From Bacilli bacterium (lineage in GTDB: Bacteria > Bacillota_I > Bacilli_A > RF39 > UBA660): a DNA stretch of 64,000 nucleotides. How positions within the stretch are numbered: position 1 is the first letter of the stretch; each line of letters begins with the position of its first letter. The notes beneath the pieces are model-generated. The model ran no database searches. It saw only the letters and a program-made list of their open reading frames with translations, and was not told the origin of the DNA. This document shows, in pieces, positions 7,456 through 43,034 of this stretch. A program made the translations under genes and the position numbers. The stretch spans positions 17,361 to 81,360 of the forward strand of contig JAZQBG010000004.1 of the NCBI GenBank assembly GCA_045545595.1, given 5' to 3'.

Positions 7456-7482
7456 AACTTATCAAATTTGATAAGTTTTTTT
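7456..7482 (+). terminator. intrinsic terminator after the pilin gene
   Basis: Perfect 9-bp stem AACTTATCA/TGATAAGTT, 4-nt loop, T5 run. Confidence 0.8.
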
Positions 7483-7485
7483 ATT

Positions 7486-7548
7486 TTATCCACAAAATTG
7501 TTGATAAATAAAGTCTTTTGTTAAAGTTTTGTTGATATTATTAGTGAT
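7486..7548 (+). repeat. cassette-boundary composite repeat R1 (22-bp dyad + 41-bp constant block)
   Basis: TTATCCACAAAATTGTTGATAA, then ATAAAGTCTTTTGTTAAAGTTTTGTTGATATTATTAGTGAT. Similarity to R5 continues about 50 bp into the DUF1016 coding start. Confidence 0.9.
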
Positions 7549-7567: not shown

Positions 7568-8572
7568 ATGATAGAAAAAGATTTTAAAAATGTAATTACT
7601 GAGGTAAAAAAGCAAATTAGTAATACTAAAATAGAGATATTTCAAAATGCTAATATGAGCTTGTTGAAATTATATTATAATATTGGAAAGATTATTTATG
7701 ATAATTCAGAATGGGGAAATAAATTTATTGATGAACTTGCAGTTGAATTAAAAATATCGTTCCCAAATATCAAAGGATTTTCGGTTAGAAATCTTAAAAG
7801 TATGAAAAAATACTATTTGATTTGTAGTAGGAACGAAAAAGTGCAGACAGCATCTGCACTAATTCCATGGTCTCATAATATGCTTATTTTAGATAAAATA
7901 AAGGATGATAATAAAAGAATATGGTATATGAATGAAACTGCTATTAATGGTTGGAGTTATGATGTTCTTGGATTTCAAATAAAAAGTGATTTATATTCAA
8001 GACAAGTACTAGGAGATAAACCGAACAATTTTAAAACGACGTTAATAAATCCGCAAAGTGATTTAGCGAAAAATATGATGAAAGATCCATATATATTAAA
8101 TTTAACTGAATTAAATGAAGGTTATATTGAAATAGAGTTAGAGTTAGCTATGGTTGAAAAGATAAAAACAGTTTTATTAGAATTAGGTAATGGTTTTAGT
8201 TTTATTGGAAATCAATATAAAATAGAGGTTGGTAATAAAGATTATTATATAGATATGCTCTTTTATCATACAAAGTTACATTGTTATATTGTTGTTGAAT
8301 TAAAGAACACCGAATTTAAACCAGAATATGCAGGAAAGGTTAATTTTTATTTATCGGCGATTGATGCTTCATTAAAAGATGAAAATGATAATCCTAGTAT
8401 TGGTATTATATTATGTAGAGACAAAGATAAAATTTCAGTAGAATATTCACTTATGGATATAAGTAAACCGATAGGAGTAAGTTCATATGAATTATCAAAA
8501 TATTTGCCATCAGACATAATAAAAGAACTACCCACAGAAGAAGACTTAAATTTCCACGTGAATATTGAATAG
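7568..8572 (+). CDS. YhcG/DUF1016-family PD-(D/E)XK nuclease, paralogue 1 (intact)
   Basis: ATG 9 nt after GGAG. The longer TTG-start version is repeat sequence, not coding. Motifs IPWSHN, GWSYDVL, GNGFSFIGNQY and D...VVELK (D/ExK). Confidence 0.8.
   Translation: MIEKDFKNVITEVKKQISNTKIEIFQNANMSLLKLYYNIGKIIYDNSEWGNKFIDELAVELKISFPNIKGFSVRNLKSMKKYYLICSRNEKVQTASALIPWSHNMLILDKIKDDNKRIWYMNETAINGWSYDVLGFQIKSDLYSRQVLGDKPNNFKTTLINPQSDLAKNMMKDPYILNLTELNEGYIEIELELAMVEKIKTVLLELGNGFSFIGNQYKIEVGNKDYYIDMLFYHTKLHCYIVVELKNTEFKPEYAGKVNFYLSAIDASLKDENDNPSIGIILCRDKDKISVEYSLMDISKPIGVSSYELSKYLPSDIIKELPTEEDLNFHVNIE
7840..7860. repeat. intragenic hairpin in DUF1016 paralogue 1
   Basis: AGTGCAGA-cagca-TCTGCACT, an 8-bp stem ending 7 nt before the conserved Trp codon. 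Confidence 0.85.
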
Positions 8573-8604
8573 ATTAATTTAAAATATTTTTAGCCTAAAT
8601 GTAA

Positions 8605-8649
8605 ATAAATAAAGTCTTTTGTTAAAATTTTGTTGATATTATTAGTGAT
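8605..8649 (+). repeat. cassette-boundary repeat R2 (constant block intact, dyad degenerate)
   Basis: ATAAATAAAGTCTTTTGTTAAAATTTTGTTGATATTATTAGTGAT. The upstream dyad is reduced to TTAGCCTAAATGTAAATAA. Confidence 0.85.
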
Positions 8650-8683
8650 GATGTTTTTAATAATATGTGTTGGATTAAATTTA

Positions 8684-8712
8684 TTGTCATTAATATATTT
8701 TTATGCTATAGT
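8684..8712 (+). promoter_or_regulatory. cassette-internal promoter (extended -10)
   Basis: TTGTCA-17 bp-TATAGT with TGc upstream. The block TTTTTATGCTATAGTTTATGAGTGAGGTG is shared with the 9531-9557 leader. Confidence 0.55.
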
Positions 8713-8714
8713 TT

Positions 8715-8915
8715 ATGAGTGAGGTGAGGACTTTGAATAAAAGTTTTAAATTATATCTAAATCAAAATAGTAATAATATAGGCAAAATTAAAAATAATAT
8801 AAAAAAATTACATACAATCGATAAGGATCTTATACCACAATATTTAGATAGTCTTAAAGAAAATTTAAAAATTAAAGAGGTAAGTAAAAATAACGAATAT
8901 TTAAAATATATGTAA
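8715..8915 (+). CDS. small hypothetical protein (about 60-66 aa), first gene of a two-gene cassette
   Basis: ORF follows SD GAGGTGAGGA. The start could be ATG 8715 or the in-frame TTG 8733. Lys/Asn-rich. Confidence 0.4.
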   Translation: MSEVRTLNKSFKLYLNQNSNNIGKIKNNIKKLHTIDKDLIPQYLDSLKENLKIKEVSKNNEYLKYM

Positions 8916-8919
8916 ATTT

Positions 8920-9402
8920 ATGGAATACAGAACGGGTCAATTAATATGGCTTAAAAATATTGATAATTTTTCTGGTCATAAAGTTAAAGAGTCAAGACTA
9001 TGTATTGTTAGAAGAGTATATAACAATTATTTGATTGATTTAAGAACTTTATCAACTATATATTATGATAAAATCAATAAAATTCCAGCACGAAATCTAA
9101 AAGAGGCAAAAAAGGTATTACAAAATTTATTTGAAACGAAAATTAGAGAATCTGGGCAATATGTTATATTTGAACCCGAAAAAGATAATACTATAAATTT
9201 TTCTTTTGCTTTTGGTAATATGATTTCAAAAAAAGTTAATCTTTCAGAGTTTGAGCATGAACCATTATTGGATAAAAATAAAAATCCATTGTTTGTGTCA
9301 GAAGAAAAGGAACTTGAATTATCTTTAAGAGAAGCAGAAGCTATTGCTAAAGATATTGTATATTATTTTAAAATTTCATCAAAGCAATTACAAACTAACT
9401 AA
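8920..9402 (+). CDS. hypothetical protein (160 aa) with possible PemK/MazF-like SH3-barrel N-terminus
   Basis: Begins 4 nt after the upstream stop. N-terminus TGQLIWLKNIDNFSGHKVKESRLCIVRR loosely resembles the GDIxxVxF...RPxLV pattern of MazF-fold toxins. Confidence 0.3.
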   Translation: MEYRTGQLIWLKNIDNFSGHKVKESRLCIVRRVYNNYLIDLRTLSTIYYDKINKIPARNLKEAKKVLQNLFETKIRESGQYVIFEPEKDNTINFSFAFGNMISKKVNLSEFEHEPLLDKNKNPLFVSEEKELELSLREAEAIAKDIVYYFKISSKQLQTN

Positions 9403-9439
9403 AATCAAGTATTTGCAATTTAAATGCTTGATTTTTATT

Positions 9440-9500
9440 TTATCCACAAAATTGTTGATAATTAAAGTCTTTTGTTAAATTTTTGTTGATATTATAAGTG
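9440..9500 (+). repeat. cassette-boundary composite repeat R3
   Basis: TTATCCACAAAATTGTTGATAA, then TTAAAGTCTTTTGTTAAATTTTTGTTGATATTATAAGTG. Preceded by a hairpin plus T-run (9405-9435). Confidence 0.9.
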
Positions 9501-9516
9501 AACACTTATTCCTGTG

Positions 9517-9545
9517 TTGTTTTTCACTTGTTTTTATGATATAGT
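9517..9545 (+). promoter_or_regulatory. cassette-internal promoter (extended -10)
   Basis: TTGTTT-17 bp-TATAGT with TGa upstream. Homologous to the 8684-8712 promoter/leader. Confidence 0.5.
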
Positions 9546-9554
9546 TTATGTGAG

Positions 9555-9734
9555 GTGGAATGGTATGGGGTTATTAAAAAAGTTGCCGGAAGGATTTATA
9601 AAAAAAATAGAATCAAAGTTTCTTCTAGGAAAAATATTGATGATGAAATAATACCAATAAAATGGTCCAAAGATGTCATAAGTGGAAATAAAAAAGCAAT
9701 TGTTAAGTTGGCTAAAGAAGCAAGGAATAAGTAG
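9555..9734 (+). CDS. small basic hypothetical protein (59 aa, GTG start), antitoxin-like position
   Basis: Frame open from GTG 9555 to TAG 9732-9734 (...IPIKWSKDVISGNKKAIVKLAKEARNK). Below the ORF-track size cutoff. Weak SD. Confidence 0.3.
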   Translation: MEWYGVIKKVAGRIYKKNRIKVSSRKNIDDEIIPIKWSKDVISGNKKAIVKLAKEARNK

Positions 9735-9777
9735 TTAGTTTTTAATTACTTATTTTTATTATGTCAGGAGGAATTAT

Positions 9778-10065
9778 ATGTGTAAAATAGGAGATATAAT
9801 TGTAATTAAAAGTTATATTGGTGATGATAGTAAAGTAATTACACAACATTCTTTTATAGTAATTGATGATACACCAAGTCAAATTGGTGGATTAAATTAT
9901 GATTTAGTAACAAATGTTATGTCTAGTCTTAAAAATGAAAAGCATAGAGCAAAAAAATTAAAATTTAAAGAAAATATAGAAATTAAAAGTGATGATCTTA
10001 TCTCTATTTATAAGAATAATAAAATTAGTGATGATATACTTATGGGAGGAGTTAAATGTGAATAA
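9778..10065 (+). CDS. hypothetical protein (95 aa), possible PemK/MazF-fold toxin-like protein
   Basis: SD AGGAGG at 9766-9771. N-terminus KIGDIIVIKSYIGDDSKVITQHSFIVID resembles the MazF/PemK N-terminal strand pattern. Overlaps the next gene start (GTGA). Confidence 0.35.
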   Translation: MCKIGDIIVIKSYIGDDSKVITQHSFIVIDDTPSQIGGLNYDLVTNVMSSLKNEKHRAKKLKFKENIEIKSDDLISIYKNNKISDDILMGGVKCE

Positions 10066-10987
10066 ATCTTTAATTAAAAATGAAGAATTACTCGGTAATT
10101 ATTATAATGAGATTAAAAATAAATTAATTGATAATGAGATATATTTAAAAGTAAAAGATTATTCAAAGGAAAGAAATAAAGTTATTACATATTTTGAAAC
10201 AGGTAAACTTTTATTTGAAGCAGGGAGTGTTTATGGAGAAGACATAATTGGACAATATTCAAAAAAATTGATGATTGAAGTAGGTAAAAAATATAATAGA
10301 AGAACTTTATTTAGAATGAGGCAGTTTTATATGGTTTTCAGCAACTCAAAAGTGTCGACATTGTCGACACTTTTGAGTTGGAGTCACTATACAGAATTAT
10401 TATCTATTAAGGATGAAAATAAACTATATTATTATTTAAATATTTCTATAAGTCAACATATTGATGTTAGAGGTTTAAGAGAAAGAATTAAAAACAAGGA
10501 ATATGAAAGATTACCAGAAAAAACAAAAAATAAATTAATTTATAAAGAAGAATCAAAAGTAGATGATTTGATTAAGAATCCAATAATTATTAAAAATAGT
10601 AATAATTATGAAACAATATCAGAGAAAATATTACAAAAATTAATATTAGAAGATATACCATCATTTTTAGATGAGTTAGGTGATGGATTTACATTTATTA
10701 GAAATGAATATAAGATTAAGTTAGGAGACAAATATAATTATATTGATTTACTTTTATATAATATTAAATATAAGTGTTATGTAGTTATAGAATTAAAAGT
10801 AACTGAACTTAGGAAAGAACATATAGGACAAATTCAAACTTATATGAATTATATTGATAAAAATATAAAGACTATAAATGAAGATAAAACTATAGGAATA
10901 ATAATAGTTAAGAAAGATAATAAGTATATTATGGAATACTGTAGTGATGAAAGAATTATATCTAAGGAATATGAGTTAGTGAGCTGA
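10058..10987 (+). CDS. YhcG/DUF1016-family PD-(D/E)XK nuclease, paralogue 2 (intact, divergent)
   Basis: GTG 7 nt after GGAGGA. Motifs LSWSHY, GDGFTFIRNEY and D...VIELK. Confidence 0.75.
   Translation: MNKSLIKNEELLGNYYNEIKNKLIDNEIYLKVKDYSKERNKVITYFETGKLLFEAGSVYGEDIIGQYSKKLMIEVGKKYNRRTLFRMRQFYMVFSNSKVSTLSTLLSWSHYTELLSIKDENKLYYYLNISISQHIDVRGLRERIKNKEYERLPEKTKNKLIYKEESKVDDLIKNPIIIKNSNNYETISEKILQKLILEDIPSFLDELGDGFTFIRNEYKIKLGDKYNYIDLLLYNIKYKCYVVIELKVTELRKEHIGQIQTYMNYIDKNIKTINEDKTIGIIIVKKDNKYIMEYCSDERIISKEYELVS
10342..10380. repeat. perfect 39-bp palindrome inside DUF1016 paralogue 2
   Basis: CAACTCAAAAGTGTCGACA-T-TGTCGACACTTTTGAGTTG. The 19-bp arms were checked base by base. Encodes NSKVSTLSTLLSW. 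Confidence 0.95.
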
Positions 10988-11001
10988 GTAATCAATTTTT
11001 T

Positions 11002-11064
11002 TTATCAATAAATATATTGATAATTAAAGTCTTTCGTTAAAATTTTGTTGATATTATTAGTGAT
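11002..11064 (+). repeat. cassette-boundary composite repeat R4 (variant dyad)
   Basis: TTATCAATAAATATATTGATAA (both arms changed but still perfectly symmetric), then TTAAAGTCTTTCGTTAAAATTTTGTTGATATTATTAGTGAT. Confidence 0.9.
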
Positions 11065-11096
11065 GATATTTTAATTATTATTGTAATATTTAAATA

Positions 11097-11122
11097 AATT
11101 TTGCAGATGTGTCTGCAAAATT
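11097..11122. repeat. isolated hairpin upstream of the decayed DUF1016 paralogue 3
   Basis: AATTTTGCAGA-tgtg-TCTGCAAAATT, an 11-bp stem. Its core TGCAGA/TCTGCA matches the intragenic hairpin of paralogue 1. Confidence 0.85.
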
Positions 11123-11124
11123 AG

Positions 11125-11995
11125 AAAGAGGAAAATAGGTTAGAAACTACTGATAAAAATTTTAAAATTATTATACATGATATTGCTAATAAAATCAAAA
11201 ATACTCAATTAGAAATATTTCAGAATGCCAATGCAAGTGTATTAGAACTTTATTTTTATATTGGGAAAATGATAGATGAAAAATTTGAATGGGGGTAATA
11301 AGTTTGTAGAACATTTATCGATAGAATTAAAATTAAGATTTCCAAATGCAAAAGGTTATTCACCAAGAAATCTCCGTAATATGAGAAAGTACTATTTATC
11401 AGTAAAAGATAATAGTGAATTAAAAGAAATTTCATTTAAAATACCTTGGTCTCACAATACAATAATAATGGATAGAGTTAGAGATGATAATAGAAAAATA
11501 TGGTATATACAACAAACATATAATAATGGATGGAGTTATGATTATTTAGAAGTTCAAATAAAACGAGACGCATATTCGAGACAGGTTTTAGAGGATAAAC
11601 CTAACAATTTCAAATTAACGTTGTTACAACCACAAAGCTCTTTGGCAAAAGAAATCATGAAGGATCCATATTTTGATGTGGGTGAGTTAAGAGAAAATTT
11701 TGTGGAAAAGGACATTGAAAGTGCGATGGTAGAAAAAATTAAAATTACATTATTAGAATTAGGTAATGGATTTAGTTTTATATCTAATCAATATAGGGTC
11801 ACAATAAATGATGAGGAAAACTTTATTGATTTATTATTCTATTATACAAAGTTACATTGTTATGTTGCAGTTTAATTAAAAAACAATAAATTTATACCTG
11901 AATATGCTGGCAAAACGAATTATTATTTGTCTGCATTAGATGATAATTTAAAAACAGAATATAATAATCCTTCCATTGGAATTATACTAGTTAGA
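11125..11995 (+). pseudogene. YhcG/DUF1016 nuclease paralogue 3, decayed
   Basis: No start codon. +1 frameshift at the G5 run 11291-11295 (EWG|NKF). In-frame TAA at 11873-11875 where paralogues have the Glu of ELK. The 3' end is replaced after ...SIGIILVRNK. Confidence 0.8.
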
Positions 11996-12042
11996 AATAA
12001 ATTGACTTTATTAAAATATTTATTAGATTGGAGGGTTAGAAA

Positions 12043-12945
12043 ATGAAAAGTGATGTAGTAACAACTGAAATAATTGTCAAAGAAAATAAAGTCGGAATTT
12101 TAAAAGTTGGAAATGTTAATTACATCTCGCTAACAGATTTAGCAAAATATCAAAATTCTTCTGATCCATCATTTACAGTTAAAAATTGGTTAAGAAGAGT
12201 AACTACTATAGATTATGTTGGTCTTTGGGAACAAATACATAATGTGGATTTTAATTTGGTCGAATTCGACCAAATTAAAACAGAGTATGGTAAAAATTCA
12301 TTTGCAATGTCTCCAACTCAATGGATAAAAAGAACTAATGCAATTGGTATAATATCAAAAGGTGGGAGATATAGTATTGGAACATATGCTCATCCAGATA
12401 TAGCTTTTGAATTTGCTAGTTGGTTGTCTCCTGAATTTAAGTTATACTTAATTACTGAGTTTGAAAGATTAAAAGTAAATGAGGCATATCAACAAAAGGT
12501 TGATTGGCAAGCTAATCGAATACTTTCAAAATTAAATTATGTAGTTCATACGGATGCAATAAAAGAATACATAGTGCCAACACTTACTGAAAAACAAATT
12601 AAATCAATTTATGCAGAAGAAGCTGATGTTTTAAATGTTGCATTGTTTGGAACTACTGCTAAGGAATGGAGAGACGCAAATCCAGAACTTGCTAAAAGAG
12701 GAAATATTAGAGATTATACTGATTTACTTCATCTAGTTATTTTAAATAATTTACAAAATACTAATGCAGAATTAATAGAAAATAATATTCCACAAAGAGA
12801 AAGATTGATTAGACTAAATAATTCCGCAAAAAGACAAATGAAGTCTTTACAAAATAATAAAAATATACGTGAATTACAAAAACTAAAAGAACAAGTAAAT
12901 AGTGAAAAATATTTATTAGAATCATTAAAACATAAAATTGAGTAA
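12043..12945 (+). CDS. KilA-N domain protein, paralogue 1
   Basis: SD GGAGGG. KilA-N-like N-terminus (NYISLTDLAKY...AHPDIAFEFASWLSPEFKLYL). About 55-60% identical by eye to ORF 46708-47571. Confidence 0.7.
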   Translation: MKSDVVTTEIIVKENKVGILKVGNVNYISLTDLAKYQNSSDPSFTVKNWLRRVTTIDYVGLWEQIHNVDFNLVEFDQIKTEYGKNSFAMSPTQWIKRTNAIGIISKGGRYSIGTYAHPDIAFEFASWLSPEFKLYLITEFERLKVNEAYQQKVDWQANRILSKLNYVVHTDAIKEYIVPTLTEKQIKSIYAEEADVLNVALFGTTAKEWRDANPELAKRGNIRDYTDLLHLVILNNLQNTNAELIENNIPQRERLIRLNNSAKRQMKSLQNNKNIRELQKLKEQVNSEKYLLESLKHKIE

Positions 12946-12959
12946 TCAGTTTTTTTCTT

Positions 12960-13022
12960 TTATCCACAATTTTGTGGATAATTAAAGTCTTTTGTTAAAA
13001 TTTTGTTGATATTATTAGTGAT
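12960..13022 (+). repeat. cassette-boundary composite repeat R5 (perfect dyad)
   Basis: TTATCCACAATTTTGTGGATAA, then TTAAAGTCTTTTGTTAAAATTTTGTTGATATTATTAGTGAT. The spacer is ATTT instead of AAAT. Confidence 0.9.
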
Positions 13023-13041
13023 AGTAATGGAGATGGAACTT

Positions 13042-14038
13042 ATGATACAAGAAGATTTTAAAAATGTAATTTGTAAAATTAAAAATGAAATAAAAACTAG
13101 TCAAGTAAAAACTATGTTAGAAGTAAATAAAAATTTAATTGTGCTTTATTTTAGAATTGGAAAAATTATCTCAGAAAACAGTAACTATGGAAATAAATTT
13201 ATTGAAAATATTTCTAGAGAAATAAAATTAGATTTTTCATATTTAAAAGGATTTTCGCCTAGAAATTTAAGAAGTATGAAGTTATTTTATCAAGAATACA
13301 AGGATGATGAGATTCGGCAACAGCTTGTTGCCAAATTACCATGGGCATAATTTATTTCTAATTGAAAAATTTAAGGATAAGAAAATAAGAAAACTTTATG
13401 TAGAAAAAACAATAGAAAATGGATGGAGTAGAAATGTGTTGGCATTTCAGATTGACACTAAATATCATTTAAGAATTGGAAATAGTTCTAATGATTTTGA
13501 TAATACTATTCCTAGCATTGATACTGACTTAGTTAATAATATAATCAAGGATCCATATATTTTTGACTTCATATCCTTAAAAGAGAATTTTAAAGAAAAA
13601 AAATTAGAAACTGCCATGGTAAACAGAATACGTGATGTATTATTAGAATTAGGTAATGGATTCTCTTTTATTGGAAATCAATATAAGATAACATTAAGAG
13701 ATAATGATTATTACATAGATTTATTATTTTACCATTTAAAACTTAGATGTTATATCTTGATTGAATTAAAAGCAACATGTTTTATTCCAGAGTATGTTGG
13801 AAAACTGAAATTTTATTTATCGATAGTTGATGATGTTATAAAAAATGAAAATGATAATCCTTCTATTGGTCTAATACTGTGTAAAGATAAGGACAAAATT
13901 ACAGCACAGTATGCACTAAAAGATATTGGTAATCCGATTGGCGTAAGTTCATATGAGGTAAACAACCTAATTCCTACAGAAATATTGGATAAATTAACAA
14001 CTGAAGAAGATATTAACATGTATGTGGATATTAAATAG
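13042..14038 (+). pseudogene. YhcG/DUF1016 nuclease paralogue 4, frameshifted
   Basis: Two overlapping ORFs (13003-13350 and 13304-14038). The frame is lost in CCATGGGCATAAT, where PW(G/S)HN is expected. Otherwise close to paralogue 1. Confidence 0.75.
13316..13332. repeat. intragenic hairpin in DUF1016 paralogue 4
   Basis: GGCAACA-gct-TGTTGCC, ending 9 nt before the Trp codon and about 12 nt before the frameshift. Confidence 0.8.
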
Positions 14039-14055
14039 CTTTAATATTTTTTCTT

Positions 14056-14077
14056 TTATCCACAAAATTGTGGATTA
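14056..14077 (+). repeat. terminal dyad R6 (palindrome only, no constant block)
   Basis: TTATCCACAAAATTGTGGATTA. The sequence then diverges from the other repeats. Confidence 0.8.
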
Positions 14078-14116
14078 TTAAAAATTATAATAAACCGGCA
14101 GCCAATACGAACAAAA

Positions 14117-14170
14117 AACAAAATCGACCGGTTTTCTAACAAAATCGACCGGTTTTCTAAAGAAATCGAC
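14117..14170 (+). repeat. tandem 21-bp direct repeats (2.5 copies) upstream of the AlbA_2-type pseudogene
   Basis: ACAAAATCGACCGGTTTTCTA occurs twice, followed by AAGAAATCGAC. Relatively GC-rich, and contains the palindrome ACCGGT. Confidence 0.8.
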
Positions 14171-14216
14171 ATTATTCTTATTAATATAATATACAATAAT
14201 AACAATGGAGGTGCTT

Positions 14217-15653
14217 ATGCAATTAAAAGATTATGAAAAAGTCGAAAGTTCAAATATAGACTTTAAAGAGAAAGTAGAATGTAGTAAACCTAAGAGTTGG
14301 TTAAAATCAGTATCAGCTTTTGCTAATACTAATGGTGGTATTTTATTGTTTGGAGTAAGGGACACTGATTTAAAACCAGTAGGATTAAAGAATATCAATG
14401 AAGATTCCGAAAAAGTTTCTAGATTAATAAACAATAAAATAGTTCCTCTACCAAGATATGAATTAAACACATTTACTGAGGATAATAAAGATTTTATGGA
14501 AATAAAAATTGGCGATGGACCTAGAACCCCATAATATTATGATTCAGATGGTCGAAAAGAAGCATTTATTCGTTCTGGTAATGAAAGTATAACCGCTCCT
14601 AAACATATTTTGGATAACTTGATATTAAAAGGTGAAAATATAACGTATGATGAATTACCTAGTAAATATATGATAGAAGATGTTAGTTTTACATTATTAA
14701 ATGCAACTCTAAAAAAAGAAACAAGAAAAGAAATAAATAAGGATAAAGATTTTATTTCACTAGAATTAATAACAAACGATGGAAAGGTAACGAATGCAGG
14801 ATTACTATTATCTGACCAAGGATTTTTAACTCAATCTAGAATTTTTTGTACTAGGTGGAAAGGATTAATAAAAGGGTCTATATCAGGTGATGCAATAGAC
14901 GATAAAGAATACACAGGAAGCATAATTTCATTACTAGAAAATGCAGAAACTTTTATAAAGAACAATTCAAAAATTAGTTAGGAAATTCAAGGAATGAAAA
15001 GAGTAGAAAAAGAAGATTATCCACTAAGAGCAGTAAGAGAAGCAATGGTCAATGCTATTATTCATAGAGATTACCAAATAATTGGTTCAGAAATTCACAT
15101 AAATATGTTTGATAATAGGCTTGAAATAACATCTCCAGGTGGTATGATAGATGGTAGTTTTGTACAAGATTTAGACATTACAAAAGTATCATCTATTAGA
15201 ATAAATAGAATAATATCAGATATATTTAATAGATTAAATTTTATGGAACGTAGAGGAAGTGGATTAGTAAGAATTGTAGAATCTTATAGTGATACATCAT
15301 TAAAGCCAAGTTTCAATTCAGATATTTCTTCATTCAAAGTTGTTTTTCCAAATAAAAGTTATAATAACACTATAATATCGAACAATATTATTTCAAATGA
15401 AAATATAGTTAATGATGAAGATTATTTCATATTAAAAATGTATAAAAACTTGCCTAAAAATATAAGAAAAAACACATTTGAACAAATTAAAAAAATATTT
15501 CAAAAATATAACTATAAATACAGTTTTAAAAGGGAAGATATTGAAATTTTATTAAACGTAAAGAAAACAAGAGCGATAGATATTATTTCATTAATGAATG
15601 AGAATGATCTAATAGACACTTTAGAACAAACAAAATATAAATTTAAAAAATAA
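14217..15653 (+). pseudogene. AlbA_2 (divergent AAA/Schlafen-like) + HATPase_c_4 putative DNA-binding regulator, with two in-frame stops
   Basis: Three collinear same-frame ORFs separated by TAA 14532-14534 and TAG 14979-14981. Motifs FKE...SAFANTNGGILLFGV and AVREAMVNAIIHRDY. Confidence 0.7.
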
Positions 15654-33657: not shown

Positions 33658-34914
33658 ATGGATAACAATTTGACAATACGTATTATTACTGAAGAAGCTA
33701 AGGAAATAGAAGCTAGTGTCATTAGTTTATTCGAAATATTAGAAAATCAAAAAAAATATGCAATATATACATTTAATGAGGAAGATGCTCAAGGTTTAGT
33801 AAAGATTTATGCTTCAAGAATTATGGAAGTTGACGGTTTATATACATTCACTTCAATTTCAGATTCAGAAGAATGGGGACGTATTAAAGCCATTATGAAA
33901 TCAATGGCTAAAGCTGATAGTGACGGTACTGATAATGGAACTGTTAAATTAATATCTGCTAAACAAGTTAAAGCTCAAATGAACGAACCAATTTCTGTAA
34001 ATCTTTCTGAAACTAAAGCTGCTAAAATAGGACCTAATTATAAAACAGGTATTACTAACAGTTATTTAAATAACGTTAAAGAAGAAGTAGCACCAGCTAT
34101 TGAAGAACCTGTTGTTGTAGTTCCTGAACCAGCAATAGAAATTCCTCAACCTGTTGTAGAACCAGTAGTAGCTCCAACTATTGAATTACCAAAAGTTGAA
34201 GAAGAGGTACCTGCTCCAATTAGTATTGAACCTGTTGCAATAGAAACTCCAGAAGTAGAAGAACCTAAAGTAGAAATGCCAGAAATTGAAATTCCTACTT
34301 TTGTACCAGAAATACCTTCATTTGAACCAACTCCAGTTGCTGATGCTGAGTTAGATTCAATTGATATGCCAAAAGTTGAAGAAGAAGTTAGTGTTCCTGA
34401 AGTTGAAGTGAAAGAAGAATTTAAACCAAGTTTTGATTTTGAAGTTCCAACATTCGATGAAGAAGAAAAAGAAGAACCAGAATATGAAGTTCCACAAATT
34501 AAAGAAAGACCAAGTGTAGACTCAGTATTAAACAAAGCTTCTTACTATCAAAATATTCCTGAAGAAAAAGAAGAAAAGCGTGATGAATCTAATGAAAATA
34601 TTATTCAATCAATTGGTTTAGAATTTATGAAAAAAGTAAGTGAACTTGCTGAATATGAAAAAGAATTAAATAAAAGAAATCGCGAATTAGAAGCTAAAGA
34701 AAGACTAATTGTAAAATTAGAAAAAGAATTGGCTGAAAAGGATGAAAAACAAAAAGCAGCTATGATGTCAAATAAAGATAGAGAAAAGGAACTTAGAAAA
34801 GTTGAAAAAGAACTTGCTGATAAAGATAATGATTTAAACAGAAGAATTATGGAATTCAACAAGAAAATTTCAATGTTCCAACAAACATTCGAAACAATTT
34901 CAAAAGTAGACTAA
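33658..34914 (+). CDS. hypothetical protein: DUF1292-like N-terminus, Pro/Glu/Val-rich low-complexity middle, coiled-coil C-terminus
   Basis: N-terminus ITEEAKEIEASVISLFEILENQKKYAIYTFNEED. The middle consists of PE(V/I)E-type repeats. Lys/Glu heptad-like tail. Confidence 0.45.
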   Translation: MDNNLTIRIITEEAKEIEASVISLFEILENQKKYAIYTFNEEDAQGLVKIYASRIMEVDGLYTFTSISDSEEWGRIKAIMKSMAKADSDGTDNGTVKLISAKQVKAQMNEPISVNLSETKAAKIGPNYKTGITNSYLNNVKEEVAPAIEEPVVVVPEPAIEIPQPVVEPVVAPTIELPKVEEEVPAPISIEPVAIETPEVEEPKVEMPEIEIPTFVPEIPSFEPTPVADAELDSIDMPKVEEEVSVPEVEVKEEFKPSFDFEVPTFDEEEKEEPEYEVPQIKERPSVDSVLNKASYYQNIPEEKEEKRDESNENIIQSIGLEFMKKVSELAEYEKELNKRNRELEAKERLIVKLEKELAEKDEKQKAAMMSNKDREKELRKVEKELADKDNDLNRRIMEFNKKISMFQQTFETISKVD

Positions 34915-34979
34915 TGTCTACTTTTTTTTCATGTAATATATTTTTTTTAAACTCATATATTAAACTAGAGGTGGGTTTA

Positions 34980-35906
34980 GTGAAAAATGCAATTCAATAC
35001 TATTACAATTTAAACCCTATTAATCTGCATCAAAAAGATGATGTTTATTATTTTAAAATCGATAATGATAGATTTTTTCTTTTTCCCCTTTTAAGAAATG
35101 ATAATGAATTAAATTCTATTTATCAAATAGATCTAGAACTATTAAATAGGCGAGTTCCAACACATCAAATCATTTTAAATAAACAAAAAAATATCGTAAC
35201 TATAGTAAATGATATTCCATATGTTTTGCTTAAATCCTTTGTTAAAAAAAATGATTCAATAGATATAGATGATATTATTACCTTAGCAAATAAAACTGAG
35301 ATTAAAAAACAAGATTTATTTTTAGATAAATCCAATTGGGTTACATTATGGGAAAATAAAAATGACTATTTAGAATATCAAGTAAGTCAATTTGGCATTA
35401 AATATCCTGTTATTTGTGAAACTTTTAGTTATTATATAGGTTTGGCAGAAAATGCTATTTTATATGTTAAAAATACTACTATTGAATCAAAGCCAGAATT
35501 TTCTGATTCTTTAGTTATATCACATAGAAGAATAAATAATTATACAACACTATTTGATTTATATAATCCTCTTGAATTTATAATTGACTATAAGGTTCGT
35601 GACATATCTGAATATATAAAATTTAAGTTTTTTTATAATAAAGAAAACTTATGGGAAGAAATAAATAATTATTTTTCTAGTAATAAATTATCTATATTTG
35701 GCGCAAGAATGTTATTTGCAAGACTACTATATCCAACATATTATTTTGATTTATATGACCAAATATTAGAAGGTGAACGCGATGAAAAAGATTTACATCA
35801 TATAATAAAAAAACAGGAAGAATATGAAGAATTTCTTAGTGATATATATAATTACTTATCACTAAAATATCCTCTACCTCCTGTGGAGTGGTTACTTAAA
35901 AGATGA
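34980..35906 (+). CDS. CotS/YutH-like spore-coat kinase-fold protein
   Basis: GTG after GAGGTGG. Size, the N-terminus AIQYYYNL..., and its position between yutD-like and nifU-like genes mirror the Bacillus yutD-yutH-yutI region. No catalytic motifs were verified. Confidence 0.4.
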   Translation: MKNAIQYYYNLNPINLHQKDDVYYFKIDNDRFFLFPLLRNDNELNSIYQIDLELLNRRVPTHQIILNKQKNIVTIVNDIPYVLLKSFVKKNDSIDIDDIITLANKTEIKKQDLFLDKSNWVTLWENKNDYLEYQVSQFGIKYPVICETFSYYIGLAENAILYVKNTTIESKPEFSDSLVISHRRINNYTTLFDLYNPLEFIIDYKVRDISEYIKFKFFYNKENLWEEINNYFSSNKLSIFGARMLFARLLYPTYYFDLYDQILEGERDEKDLHHIIKKQEEYEEFLSDIYNYLSLKYPLPPVEWLLKR

Positions 35907-35920
35907 TAATTTATCATCTT

Positions 35921-36142
35921 TTAAGCTAATTCTACTTTTTTTACTTCTGGAATTTCACTCATTAAAGCCATTTCAATTCCTTCTAATGTTTGGTCTAACA
36001 TATAACAGTGCATACATACACCACTTACATTAACATACACAATACCATCTTCAAATTTAACAAATTCTATGTTTCCACCATCATTTTGAAGTATTGGTTT
36101 TATTTTTTCAATAACTTCTTTTATTTTTTCCTCTGTTTTCAT
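35921..36142 (-). CDS. NifU-like (Nfu/YutI-type) Fe-S cluster scaffold protein
   Basis: Segment IKPILQNDGGNIEFVKFEDGIVYVNVSGVCMHC contains the CxxC of the Nfu C-terminal domain. Confidence 0.8.
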   Translation of the reverse strand: MKTEEKIKEVIEKIKPILQNDGGNIEFVKFEDGIVYVNVSGVCMHCYMLDQTLEGIEMALMSEIPEVKKVELA

Positions 36143-36862: not shown

Positions 36863-38149
<1,287 letters not shown>

Positions 38150-38756: not shown

Positions 38757-39767
38757 ATGTTGGAAAAAAGCAATACTCAAATGATTAAAGAAATTAAAGA
38801 TGTAATTATTAGTAGTAGAAATAAAATAGCTTATGAAGTAAATAATACAATGCTATTAGCATACTGGAATGTTGGTAGAATTATTGTTGAAAATGAACAA
38901 AATGGAAATATAAAAGCTGAATATGGTAAACAAGTTTTAAAAGAACTTTCAAAAGAATTAAAAAAGGTTTTAGGTTCAGGTTTTTCAGTATCAAATCTTC
39001 AATATATGCGTAGATTTTATATTAAATATCCAAAACAACAGACACTGTCTGTTAAATTGAGTTGGTCTCATTATTGTGAGTTATTAAGTATTGAAAATGA
39101 TGATGAAAGATGTTTTTATGAAAAAGAATGTGTTAATTCAAATTGGAGTGTTAGAGAATTAAAAAGACAATTAGAAACATCATTATTTGAAAGATTATTG
39201 TTATCAGAAGGAAAAGATAATAAGAAAAAAGTTTATGAACTAGCAAAAGTTGGACAATCTTTAACTACTCCAAAAGATATTCTTAAAGAACCTTATGTTT
39301 TTGAATTCTTAGGTATTCCAGAAAATAAACCAATACTTGAAAAAGATTTAGAAAGAAAATTAGTTAAACACATGAGAGAATTTTTGCTTGAATTAGGTAA
39401 AGGATTTATGTTTGTTGGAACACAACAAAGAATAACATTAGGTAATATTCATTATTATGTTGATATGGTTTTTTATAATAAAATTTTAAAATGTTATGTA
39501 TTAATTGATTTAAAAATAGGACAAATGAAACCAGAATATGCTGGTCAAATGAATATGTATTTGAACTATTTTACAGAAGAAATTAATGATGAATCAGATA
39601 ATAAACCTATTGGAATTATCCTATGTAAAAGTAGAAAAGAAATTGCAATGGAATATGCTTTAGGTGGATTATCTAATAATGTATTTGCATCAACTTATAC
39701 TTATTATATACCTAAGAAAGATGTATTAATTAGTGAAGTTGAAAGGATTTTGAAAGAAGAAAATTAA
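38757..39767 (+). CDS. YhcG/DUF1016-family PD-(D/E)XK nuclease, paralogue 5 (intact)
   Basis: SD AAAGGAG. Motifs LSWSHY, NWSVRELKRQ, GKGFMFVGTQQ and D...LIDLK. Confidence 0.8.
   Translation: MLEKSNTQMIKEIKDVIISSRNKIAYEVNNTMLLAYWNVGRIIVENEQNGNIKAEYGKQVLKELSKELKKVLGSGFSVSNLQYMRRFYIKYPKQQTLSVKLSWSHYCELLSIENDDERCFYEKECVNSNWSVRELKRQLETSLFERLLLSEGKDNKKKVYELAKVGQSLTTPKDILKEPYVFEFLGIPENKPILEKDLERKLVKHMREFLLELGKGFMFVGTQQRITLGNIHYYVDMVFYNKILKCYVLIDLKIGQMKPEYAGQMNMYLNYFTEEINDESDNKPIGIILCKSRKEIAMEYALGGLSNNVFASTYTYYIPKKDVLISEVERILKEEN
39037..39053. repeat. intragenic hairpin in DUF1016 paralogue 5
   Basis: AACAGACA-c-TGTCTGTT, ending 9 nt before the Trp codon. Confidence 0.85.
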
Positions 39768-41840: not shown

Positions 41841-43034
41841 ATGGAAGAAAATAAAATGATATTATCACAAAGAATTGTAGATAATGATAATACTAAAGAA
41901 AACGATTTATTCAAAGAATATATTATTAATGTTGAAAATTATTCAAAAACACATATTTTTTCAAATATAGAAAAAGGAATTATATCTACAACATTTAAAG
42001 AATACTTATATAATGTATTTGATGTATCAAATCAATTAGAATTAATAAAAAAAATTAATGGGGAATGGAAATTAATATTAGAAGATGGTATAGATGATTT
42101 TATTTTAGATGAAACTCAAAAAGTTGTGACAATATATTATGGGGATTACAAAATCTTTTATTACGACAAAATGAAAACAAAAAATTCTGCAAACGCCATT
42201 AAAATGTTGTTTAATGATGATAAGGTACCACCTACAAGCCAAATTGCTGATGTCATTGAAAAAATAGCCGATAGATCAGATGCATTAAGTTTTACTATTA
42301 ATGAAAAAAATATTATAGCAAAAAGTATTCCTACAATCTTGATGGATAATAACATTAAATTAGATAAAGATGATATCTTTGATATAAACAAAGTTTCAAT
42401 TCGAGAAGTTATAGAAATTGGGAGAAAAATATTAAAGAATGATAGAACAGTATTGAAGATATTTGGAACAAAAGAAGTTCACAAAGAAGAAACTTGGCAA
42501 CAATATTTTGAAAGATATGGTAATTATTTGTTATTTGGAAATGTACGTTTAGATCCTAAGGTATGTTTAAATAAAGAAAAAACTAAGGAATTGAACGATA
42601 AATACCCAGATATTATTACATGTAATAGATTTGGATTTTTAGATATTATAGAATTAAAAAGATCAGATATGTTTCTGTTTAAATTTGATAATTCTCATAA
42701 TAAATTAGTTCCAACATCGACACTAAGTTCTGCTTTATCGCAATTAAATGGATATTTACAAATTATTCCTTATGCATATGAGACTCAAAAAGCTAAAGAC
42801 CAAGGTTTAGAATGTGCTTCTGGCATGTTATTAATTGGAGATAATGATCATTTAGTTAAAGAAAATGATACTTTAAAAAAATATATGCAAGATAATAATT
42901 TAACTATAGAAAATATAAAGTATGAAGCACAAAAAGAATTAAGAAAATTAAATTATAGTTATAGTCATATGCAAGTTGTTTTATATGATGAATTAATAAA
43001 TACTCTTGAAACATTTATTAATAATATAAATTAA
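41841..43034 (+). CDS. Shedu-like (DUF4263) PD-(D/E)XK nuclease defence candidate
   Basis: C-terminal core YPDIITCNRFGFLDIIELKRSD...LSSALSQLNGY matches the D...ExK...Q..Y layout recalled for SduA/DUF4263. The N-terminal domain is unassigned. Confidence 0.45.
   Translation: MEENKMILSQRIVDNDNTKENDLFKEYIINVENYSKTHIFSNIEKGIISTTFKEYLYNVFDVSNQLELIKKINGEWKLILEDGIDDFILDETQKVVTIYYGDYKIFYYDKMKTKNSANAIKMLFNDDKVPPTSQIADVIEKIADRSDALSFTINEKNIIAKSIPTILMDNNIKLDKDDIFDINKVSIREVIEIGRKILKNDRTVLKIFGTKEVHKEETWQQYFERYGNYLLFGNVRLDPKVCLNKEKTKELNDKYPDIITCNRFGFLDIIELKRSDMFLFKFDNSHNKLVPTSTLSSALSQLNGYLQIIPYAYETQKAKDQGLECASGMLLIGDNDHLVKENDTLKKYMQDNNLTIENIKYEAQKELRKLNYSYSHMQVVLYDELINTLETFINNIN

Follow-up and report, generated by a model that had tools for sequence, protein, structure and literature searches.

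Position-locked palindromes inside YhcG/DUF1016 genes as possible cognate sites of the proteins that they help to encode

Introduction

ParB-parS and Noc-NBS are systems in which a helix-turn-helix (HTH) protein is paired with a palindromic site of 14-16 bp, and in which the specificity for the site is set by a few residues of the recognition helix. Palindromic sites are also encountered within coding regions, including the intragenic auxiliary operators lac O2 in lacZ and gal OI in galE, where promoter-near copies permit looping or roadblock, and the Rickettsia palindromic elements (RPEs), selfish sequences of 100-150 bp that are found in frame in many unrelated genes of a single genus. The first parS of Bacillus subtilis, ascribed to Lin and Grossman 1998, reportedly lies inside spo0J itself, in a linker or loop segment after the DNA-binding helices. 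This paper describes palindromes inside the YhcG/DUF1016 genes of a 64,000-nucleotide stretch of contig JAZQBG010000004.1 of a Bacilli bacterium (hereafter the window; G+C content 26%). These palindromes occupy one fixed codon position, which is a property of the widespread YhcG/DUF1016 family, and they may be the cognate sites of the proteins in whose genes they lie.

Comparison with the described systems shows both likeness and difference. A palindromic site is shared with ParB and Noc, and the DNA-binding domain of YhcG may be of the ParB type, on weak similarity; in contrast to these proteins, YhcG lacks the N-terminal CTPase domain of ParB, has a PD-(D/E)XK nuclease as its partner domain and implies no partition function, and its site is hypervariable with compensatory changes, locked to one codon position, amplifiable in frame and movable to the 5' leader. 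As in lacZ and galE, a palindromic site that is predicted to bind protein lies in a coding region, but the lac and gal operators are located in a gene other than that of the repressor and do not shape a protein family, whereas the YhcG site resides in its own open reading frame (ORF) and moves along with it. RPEs likewise show that surface or loop segments of proteins tolerate palindromic DNA in frame, also in multiple copies; the YhcG palindromes, in contrast, are 19-39 bp long, belong to one family and one codon position across phyla, and are not dispersed. In REPtrons, the combination of repetitive extragenic palindromes (REPs) and RAYT, short palindromes accompany and flank a gene whose product, a nuclease, could use them as substrate, but REPs are extragenic, occur in hundreds per genome and are substrates of HUH Y1 enzymes, whereas the YhcG copies are restricted to their gene and the sequence directly beside it, and the protein has a PD-(D/E)XK domain. 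Finally, quasi-palindromes that act as template-switch hotspots, as in Escherichia coli thyA, resemble the YhcG element in that imperfect inverted repeats are made perfect; such a hotspot is a mutational mechanism, and predicts no conserved position, core or flanking copies. The features that are unusual here are the position-locking, the covariation that rewrites the protein, the in-frame amplification and the recurrence in a second family. No description of the palindrome element was found in the full-text literature on DUF1016/YhcG, COG4804, PDC-S02 and PDC-S22.

Results

Palindromes at one codon position in the paralogues of the window

The window contains five DUF1016/YhcG paralogues (P1 to P5), of which P1, P2 and P5 are intact, P3 is decayed and P4 is frameshifted. 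Their features are as follows.

7568-8572, plus strand: P1, intact DUF1016/YhcG gene (Pfam DUF1016_N, E 1.6e-37; YhcG_C, E 4.3e-61; PADLOC PDC-S02, E 1e-126).
7775-7816, plus strand: P1 codons of the putative HTH recognition helix GFSVRNLKSMKKYY (from the translation; in relatives, covariation links arm bases to the homologous helix).
7840-7860, unstranded: P1 intragenic palindrome AGTGCAGA-cagca-TCTGCACT, with 8-bp arms and a 5-nt centre (DNA fold -8.6 kcal/mol, z -5.9).
10058-10987, plus strand: P2, intact DUF1016/YhcG gene (Pfam; PADLOC PDC-S02).
10342-10380, unstranded: P2 intragenic perfect 39-bp palindrome, with 19-bp arms and centre T (DNA fold -20.4 kcal/mol, z -8.5).
11276-11875, plus strand: P3, decayed DUF1016 copy without intragenic palindrome (partial Pfam matches).
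11097-11122, unstranded: P3 5' leader palindrome AATTTTGCAGA-tgtg-TCTGCAAAATT, with perfect 11-bp arms, between a -10-like box and the ribosome-binding site (z -7.3).
13042-14038, plus strand: P4, DUF1016 gene broken by a frameshift (ORFs 13003-13350 and 13304-14038; Pfam).
13316-13332, unstranded: P4 intragenic palindrome, with 7-bp arms and a 3-nt centre (z -3.4).
38757-39767, plus strand: P5, intact DUF1016/YhcG gene (Pfam; PADLOC; thousands of relatives).
38979-39020, plus strand: P5 codons of the putative recognition helix GFSVSNLQYMRRFY (from the translation; helix 78-90 of the AlphaFold2 model).
39037-39053, unstranded: P5 intragenic palindrome, with 8-bp arms and centre C (z -2.1; core CAGACAsTGTCTG identical in most clade-1 homologues).

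A first-pass annotation of the window had placed palindromes in P1, P2, P4 and P5 at these coordinates, all of which hold on re-examination of the sequence. In each of the four genes the palindrome is centred 18 nt before the Trp codon of the conserved (P/S)W(S/G)H motif, the centre being the first base of codon -6 relative to this Trp, and the palindrome of P2 is the longest hairpin of the whole window. Hairpins with arms of at least 7 nt and a loop of at most 6 nt number 121 in the window, or approximately 0.06 per 30-nt zone, from which the chance that four of five paralogues carry a hairpin in the zone is approximately 5e-5. The AT-rich near-palindrome that had been assigned to P3 at 11420-11439 did not stand: this stretch (region 11412-11447) folds no better than shuffled sequences (z +0.2), so that P3 lacks an intragenic palindrome, and its real palindrome is the one in the 5' leader, of which the TTGCAGA arms are those of the intragenic palindrome in a relative (locus L132).

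The frameshift of P4 (13340-13350) is located directly 3' of the Trp codon, with CCA TGG GCA TAA where P-W-G-H-N is expected, and yhcG of E. coli strain 1613 (L163) has a 2-nt deletion 9 nt past its palindrome. Two such cases are too few for a hotspot claim, and they may be a coincidence.

Conservation and covariation throughout the family

To place the paralogues in their family, 160 homologue loci of bacteria and archaea were gathered, including 80 relatives of P5 from diverse, species-representative genomes of both domains (45-86% identity) and 80 relatives of P1 from metagenomes; presence was counted in 129 non-redundant homologues. Approximately 70% of the latter, from many phyla, carry a palindrome at the locked position, with arms of 8-14 bp and a 1-nt centre. 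Among the relatives of P5 nearly all have it at the same place, for example TTCCAGACAcTGTCTGGAA, GTGAGACAcTGTCTCAC, TGGCAGACAgTGTCTGCCA, TTCTCGACGCAgTGCGTCGAGAA and CAATTGCGACAACAcTGTTGTCGCAATTG, and the encoded peptides vary along with the DNA (FQTLSGK, SETLSHQ, WQTVSAK, LDAVRRE, ATTLLSQ). The relatives of P1 behave in the same manner around another core (..GCAACAA-S-TTGTTGC..), and some of their subclades have no palindrome. Overall the palindromes measure 19-39 bp, with AT-rich outer ends (AATT or CAATTG), a variable middle with covarying arms, and cores that are family-specific: one clade has CAGAC(A)-S-(T)GTCTG, the other GCAAC..GTTGC.

The first-pass annotation had proposed that the copies differ in sequence at one codon position while covariation within the coding region maintains their pairing, and it had named the stem potential of homologues as the check; the proposal holds family-wide, beyond this genome, and homologues of many phyla lie far above the codon-shuffled expectation. 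Across a diverse set of 77 homologues, perfect arms in the zone reached a mean maximum length of 7.6 nt, compared to 3.8 nt elsewhere in the same genes and 3.9 nt in synonymous-codon shuffles, and in 31 of the 77 the longest arm exceeded all 200 shuffles. At least 9 of 14 positions were paired in 77 of 84 sequences, 67 of which had the centre exactly at -18. Arm positions 6-8 displayed three to four types of Watson-Crick pairs, with 72-74 of 77 sequences paired. When 101 sequences of the two clades were aligned on the Trp, 80% of the cells were paired versus 57% after shuffling and 28-37% with a slid partner, and the covariation score was 0.536 versus 0.159.

The choice of codons in the palindrome deviates strongly from that in the rest of the same genes, for Leu (CTG in 31/34 vs 11%), Ser (TCT in 50/62 vs 22%), Thr (ACA in 48/53 vs 39%), Gln (CAG in 36/41 vs 31%) and Val (GTG in 26/30 vs 17%), which establishes that selection at this site acts on nucleotides. 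Moreover, close relatives with proteins more than 80% identical have switched residues solely in a coupled fashion, for instance from FQT[LV]SGK to QQT[LV]SVK, and in the P2 clade ST..ST, SP..AT and AP..AQ substitute for one another. A 37-bp counterpart of the 39-bp P2 palindrome is present in a 93%-identical gene from another metagenome (L230), and the P2 palindrome is therefore no assembly artefact; since an 82% relative pairs at only 7 of 9 positions, the extra length in P2 and L230 is lineage-specific. Paralogues that reside together almost always have different arms, both in the window and in four other loci (L009, L096, L108, L130). With variability ranks of approximately 34th-50th (fam5) and 49th-65th (fam2) among roughly 330-360 columns, the palindrome-coded columns are below the top ranks in both sets, which does not indicate strong diversifying selection. 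A scan of viral contigs with the single proteins P1 and P2 yielded no matches.

Symmetry of the palindrome at the DNA level

The palindrome is perfect through its 1-nt centre. In clade 1 the centre base is C in 40/77 and G in 29/77 sequences, and in the P2 clade it appears to be T or A, judging from the alternation of Leu and Met at the centre codon; centre codon counts were 57 and 62 for CTG and GTG, and 52 and 37 for TTG and ATG. Because the centre base flips between complementary bases, template switching or recombination between the arms is taken to occur, and the toggling suggests that this process helps to keep the arms matched; template switching of the kind known from thyA probably explains both the arm matching and the centre flips.

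A.C mismatches are as common as G.T mismatches at the palindromes, and a G.U wobble test revealed no sense-strand wobble excess, codon constraints being a confounder of this test. Non-coding copies of the palindrome, described below, have 4-nt centres that are mostly YRYR (CGCG, CGCA, TGTG, TGCG) and alike on both strands. No U-tract follows the intragenic copies, the next bases being AAATTG or AATT(C/A). Rfam 15 gave no match at E<=10 for the DUF1016 palindromes, and only chance, miRNA-like matches for the palindrome of the KilA-N gene that is treated below. GTTRRRY boxes, the core of integron attC sites, were not evident in the palindromes on inspection by eye only.

Copies in 5' leaders, 3' flanks and tandem arrays

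Palindromes of the same type are also located between a -10-like box and the ribosome-binding site (L002, L003, L006, L058, L019, L072, the L084 group and the P3 leader) and 16-30 nt past the stop codon (L006, L011, L019, L072, L082/83 and the L084 group). These non-coding copies retain the family core CAGAC..GTCTG in the absence of codon constraint. Flanking copies were found for 9 of 38 genes without an intragenic palindrome versus 5 of 91 genes with one (Fisher p 0.005, with some non-independence among the genes). In L072 and L019 near-identical copies with the same arms are present upstream, inside and downstream of the gene, and in L058, which has lost its intragenic copy, the upstream copy has the arms of the relative L060, whose upstream helix is the same. 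Some of the downstream copies in the L084 group are accompanied by A/T-tracts, and these copies may terminate transcription. A candidate element inserted at the palindrome in L084-type loci was rejected, as it is a tandem partial paralogue.

Amplification within the gene was encountered as well. In certain homologues (L117, L125, L153, L156, L160), obtained from termite gut and other samples, the linker is expanded and holds a tandem series of 2-9 palindromes in frame; L153, for example, has three copies of AATTCGTCCCCAAgTTGGGGACGAATT, and L160 has three 30-nt units in succession. P2 relatives of 402-406 aa (P0122-P0175) have two tandem copies of the whole N-terminal module, approximately residues 7-112, which includes the palindrome segment as well as WSHY. 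Elsewhere in each locus, half-sites of a gene's own palindrome are few and lie mostly in DUF1016 paralogues (with different arms) or in the immediate flanks; within the window the core was found only in P1 and P5.

Palindromes of E. coli yhcG

The yhcG gene of E. coli K-12 contains three intragenic palindromes 39 nt apart (+315, +354, +393), and K-12 has a perfect palindrome 28 nt past the yhcG stop codon and one more directly after gltD. Intragenic copies number one in O157:H7 and two in other strains. The positions in the loci analysed are as follows.

L161 (K-12, NC_000913.3), approximately 2631-2658, 10143-10250 and 10970-10998: E. coli palindromes.
L229, approximately 2455-2485: E. coli palindrome.

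The arms of yhcG alleles differ by compensatory changes (CGCC..GGCG, GTGC..GCAC, CTCC..GGAG). Alleles that are more than 97% identical elsewhere are only approximately 65% identical over a block that consists of exactly the helix codons and the palindromes. Strains without yhcG have a solo palindrome between gltD and nanQ, with the arms of the intragenic copy of O157 yhcG. BLAST with this solo 34-mer returned a median of 2 and a maximum of 5 places per E. coli genome, and the palindrome family is therefore not dispersed; in the matches listed, the annotated feature under the match was either none or yhcG/DUF1016. A dispersed palindromic repeat, whether REP or bacterial interspersed mosaic element, RPE, or of the miniature inverted-repeat transposable element type, was rejected on the basis of this search and of the restriction of the core to P1 and P5 in the window.

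A putative ParB-type reader upstream of the palindrome

The DUF1016_N domain (PF17761) scored 129, 79 and 155 bits in P1, P2 and P5, respectively (Pfam gathering cut-off 32.8), and YhcG_C (PF06250) scored 118-208 bits, its motif YIDxLFY...(E/D)LK (D...E-x-K core) being conserved in the alignment. The C-terminal domain has a PD-(D/E)XK fold, with Foldseek matches to Cas4, MGME1, Hjc and RecU. When the full protein model was used, Foldseek found the nuclease fold only, with cap-snatching endonucleases among the fold matches, and a search of solved structures by sequence gave no informative match for the full protein.

For the N-terminal domain alone (pLDDT 86), the top Foldseek matches were Noc and ParB, which were weak (E 0.4-2.5, TM-score 0.4-0.48). 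Pfam HTH_ParB matched this domain at E 0.015 with 15.9 bits, under the cut-off of 22.6, and a profile search of the PDB aligned 'kvqtl.stklsWshytell' with Spo0J 'IQQLIAEGTLSMGHGRTLL' at E 0.6, the Spo0J stretch opposite the palindrome-coded peptide being IQQLIAEG..GHGRTLL. The DUF1016 proteins gave no Pfam match to the ParB N-terminal CTPase or ParB-N domain, their other domain being the PD-(D/E)XK nuclease. On the basis of the Spo0J alignment, GFSxSNLx1x2MRxFY is the putative recognition helix; it is encoded 15 codons upstream of the palindrome. In the AlphaFold2 model the peptide encoded by the palindrome lies in a loop or short helix that separates helix 78-90 from helix 103-110.

In the P5 clade the helix residues x1 and x2 (columns -21 and -20) track the type of arm, with normalised mutual information of 0.81 and 0.76, respectively, compared to lower values of 0.28-0.45 for the columns between helix and palindrome. 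The association concerns arm positions 7-9, and certain pairings of helix and arm recur on different protein backbones, namely F/Y with xTCC (in both clades), W with NTGC and R with TGG.

A similar palindrome in KilA-N genes

A second, unrelated gene family, with a member in the same island, displays the same behaviour.

12043-12945, plus strand: KilA-N domain gene, PADLOC PDC-S22 (Pfam KilA-N, E 2.9e-17; PDC-S22, E 4e-116).
12249-12280, unstranded: KilA-N intragenic perfect 32-bp palindrome centred on GAA|TTC (z -6.9).

In 36 distinct homologues of approximately 45-55% identity, this even-centred site has a mean of 11.8 of 14 positions paired versus 3.6 in the background, and it follows the pattern TTTAA-N6-CGAA|TTCG-N6-TTAAA with rich covariation. 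Two members (L210, L217) have no intragenic palindrome and carry one of the same type 20-50 nt upstream of the start codon. In addition, a viral contig (L221, 271-299) has an odd-centred palindrome of the DUF1016 type, CAATTCGGTACGCAcTGCGTACCGAATTG, approximately 300 nt upstream of a KilA-N gene, which suggests that the two families can be neighbours elsewhere too.

Genomic context in the window

In the region bounded by the tad pilus genes and, downstream, by pilus-like genes, each cassette is preceded by a repeat.

7478-7547, 8579-8648, 9432-9501, 10994-11063, 12952-13021 and 14048-14117: 70-nt repeat.

In this repeat, two inverted, perfect DnaA-box-like 9-mers (TTATCCACAA-nn-TTGTGGATAA) precede a stretch that resembles a promoter (TTGTTA..TTGTTGATATTATTAGTGAT), and TTATCCACA occurs 6 times in the window versus 1.1 times expected. 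As the same 70-nt repeat flanks P2 relatives in L230 and L231, the region is a conserved cassette hotspot. P5 resides in a second integrated or defence island, as judged from the serine recombinase gene upstream (36923-38149) and the gene for a Shedu SduA_C protein downstream (41841-43034).

Two further observations concern other parts of the window. An unannotated ORF (34914-35906) is bracketed by the palindromes AAAAGTAGACTAATGTCTACTTTT (34902-34925) and CTTAAAAGATGATAAtTTATCATCTTTTAAG (15-bp arms, 35895-35925). After the cassette array, three consecutive ORFs (14205-15653) resemble a fragmented gene, the last of which is weakly similar, according to PADLOC, to regions of proteins associated with Argonaute (Aga SIR2-PNTD, pAgo).

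Discussion

The reading that we favour, with a probability of roughly 0.4, is that the palindrome is the cognate site of the ParB-like HTH in the N-terminal domain of the protein itself, located within approximately 60 bp of the codons for its reader, and that it probably serves self-regulation. The palindrome would then be a cis element of the YhcG/DUF1016 gene itself that acts at the level of DNA, filling the loop-coding segment after the recognition helix of the ParB/Noc-like HTH by which it would be read; as the palindrome directly follows the recognition-helix codons, reader and site would form one linked unit that moves with the gene. Binding of the protein to the palindrome is predicted from sequence, as is regulation of expression by this binding, which could provide promoter-independent self-control of a potentially toxic PD-(D/E)XK nuclease if the site acts as an operator or roadblock; copies near the promoter and past the stop codon may take part by looping. 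The operator-like position of the 5' copies fits such a self-site, as does the reported location of parS inside spo0J. Different arms in co-resident paralogues would avoid cross-talk, and the matching of the arms would probably be aided by template switching or arm-arm recombination. Among the functions that the first-pass annotation had listed, a self-recognition site for the encoded nuclease comes closest to this reading.

Several observations weigh against a self-site. The three signals that agree on a ParB-type HTH in the N-terminal domain do so weakly and lie below curated thresholds, and the association between helix and arms could reflect transfer of linked blocks instead of function. 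The arms of the E. coli K-12 array are mixed (CGCC/CACC, CCGC, TGGC), as they are in L156 and L160, and the downstream copy of E. coli is unchanged across helix alleles; a strict code of one reader for one site therefore fails. Approximately 22% of the genes have a palindrome neither inside nor in the flanks examined, and a roadblock inside an operon-embedded gene would be polar on the genes downstream. The spacing between CAGA and TCTG is 2, 4 or 5 nt, and such variation is a better fit to a stem-loop or cruciform, or to a flexible dimer, than to a rigid dimer on duplex DNA. Finally, the shared behaviour of two unrelated families could stem from a common structural or host-level mechanism and not from two self-sites.

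Other functions of the palindrome can be envisaged. As a site of recombination or mobility it would extrude as a hairpin or cruciform, or be cut by the PD-(D/E)XK domain, and would be the joint at which a cassette or the N-terminal module is inserted, excised, duplicated or exchanged. Such a role agrees with the copies at both gene ends in L072, L019, L006 and the L084 group, the solo palindrome with O157 arms at the empty E. coli locus and the extra K-12 copy after gltD, the mosaic divergent block of E. coli alleles that stops at the palindromes, the tandem in-frame amplification to 2-9 units, the duplicated N-terminal module of P2 relatives, the toggling of the centre base between complements (CTG/GTG, TTG/ATG), the nuclease fold shared with Hjc, RecU and Cas4, and a varying centre length that suits a stem-loop. 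We nevertheless consider it somewhat unlikely, as most genes have an intragenic copy only, which is unable to delimit a cassette, the E. coli junctions are unclean with flanks that diverge too, the cassette borders in the window carry the different repeat TTATCCACAA..TTGTGGATAA, the palindromes are not dispersed in genomes, and a nuclease that cuts its own gene is self-destructive. An RNA hairpin, acting as a stabiliser, an RNase III site, a translational operator or a type III antitoxin-like RNA that restrains the nuclease, would have a flexible position in the mRNA, and copies are indeed placed flexibly in the transcription unit, in the 5' leader near +1, in the ORF and at the 3' end. True 4-nt loops in the non-coding copies, tandem arrays reminiscent of ToxI-like repeats, and the fact that some PD-(D/E)XK folds are RNases, with cap-snatching endonucleases among the fold matches, argue in the same direction. 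A function at the RNA level is unlikely all the same: there is no wobble signature, sense-strand A.C mismatches being at least as common as G.T, complementarity runs into the would-be loop, strand symmetry holds at the centre (C/G or mostly YRYR), the U-tract after intragenic copies and the Rfam match are absent, and HTH and KilA-N domains typically bind double-stranded DNA. The RNA attenuator that the first-pass annotation had put forward is not favoured on the same grounds.

Molecular drive without function, in which an ancestral quasi-palindrome in a tolerant loop was perfected by template-switch correction, accounts for the perfection through the centre and the flips of the centre base between complements, and is in line with the low structural constraint on the encoded loop and with arm lengths that depend on lineage, such as the lengthening to 19 bp, which is confined to P2 and L230. 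It leaves unexplained that one codon position is kept across bacteria and archaea and in two unrelated families, that non-coding copies retain the core sequence, that a 5' leader copy replaces a lost intragenic one and that the arms covary with the upstream helix, and long palindromes are normally unstable. Neutral template switching, raised earlier as an alternative, is thus likely to contribute to the matching of the arms and is insufficient by itself in view of the non-coding cores, the 5' relocation and the helix covariation; as the complete explanation it is very improbable. It had also been suggested that the palindrome might serve as attachment (att) site for a large serine recombinase, whose gene (36923-38149) has Resolvase and Recombinase domains and lies two genes upstream of P5. 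The probability of this is negligible, as the palindrome is family-wide and occurs in E. coli yhcG and at most of the 160 loci without a recombinase beside it, as its odd centre contrasts with the central dinucleotide at which crossover by serine recombinases takes place, and as the same core is present in dozens of unrelated genomes.

A self-site read by the encoded HTH may extend beyond one family. Tentatively, and with more doubt than we attach to the YhcG site itself, the two unrelated families of mobile single-gene defence candidates, YhcG/DUF1016 and KilA-N, may each be a self-contained combination of a reader and a hypervariable site within approximately 60 bp of one ORF. Such genes would bring along their own control or anchoring site, with paralogues that are orthogonal to each other and a protein that is partly dictated by the palindrome, and the site might also be a nuclease substrate for cassette exchange. 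The parallel with KilA-N suggests that mobile genes without a promoter may carry their own cis site inside the ORF, and the search for position-locked intragenic palindromes offers a simple screen for more families of this kind. Such palindromes are also hotspots for rearrangement and copy-number change, which is relevant to annotation and to codon optimisation.

If true, this would be a clear family-wide case of nucleic-acid symmetry shaping protein sequence, in which the amino-acid pairs F..G, W..A, Q..V and SE..HQ would switch jointly only because the DNA must stay palindromic. YhcG/DUF1016 proteins are very common, enriched in defence islands and type I restriction-modification loci, and uncharacterised. 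The palindrome would be the first mechanistic lead for this family, offering a predicted cognate site together with a predicted recognition helix, and the presence of the element in yhcG of E. coli K-12 makes it directly testable.

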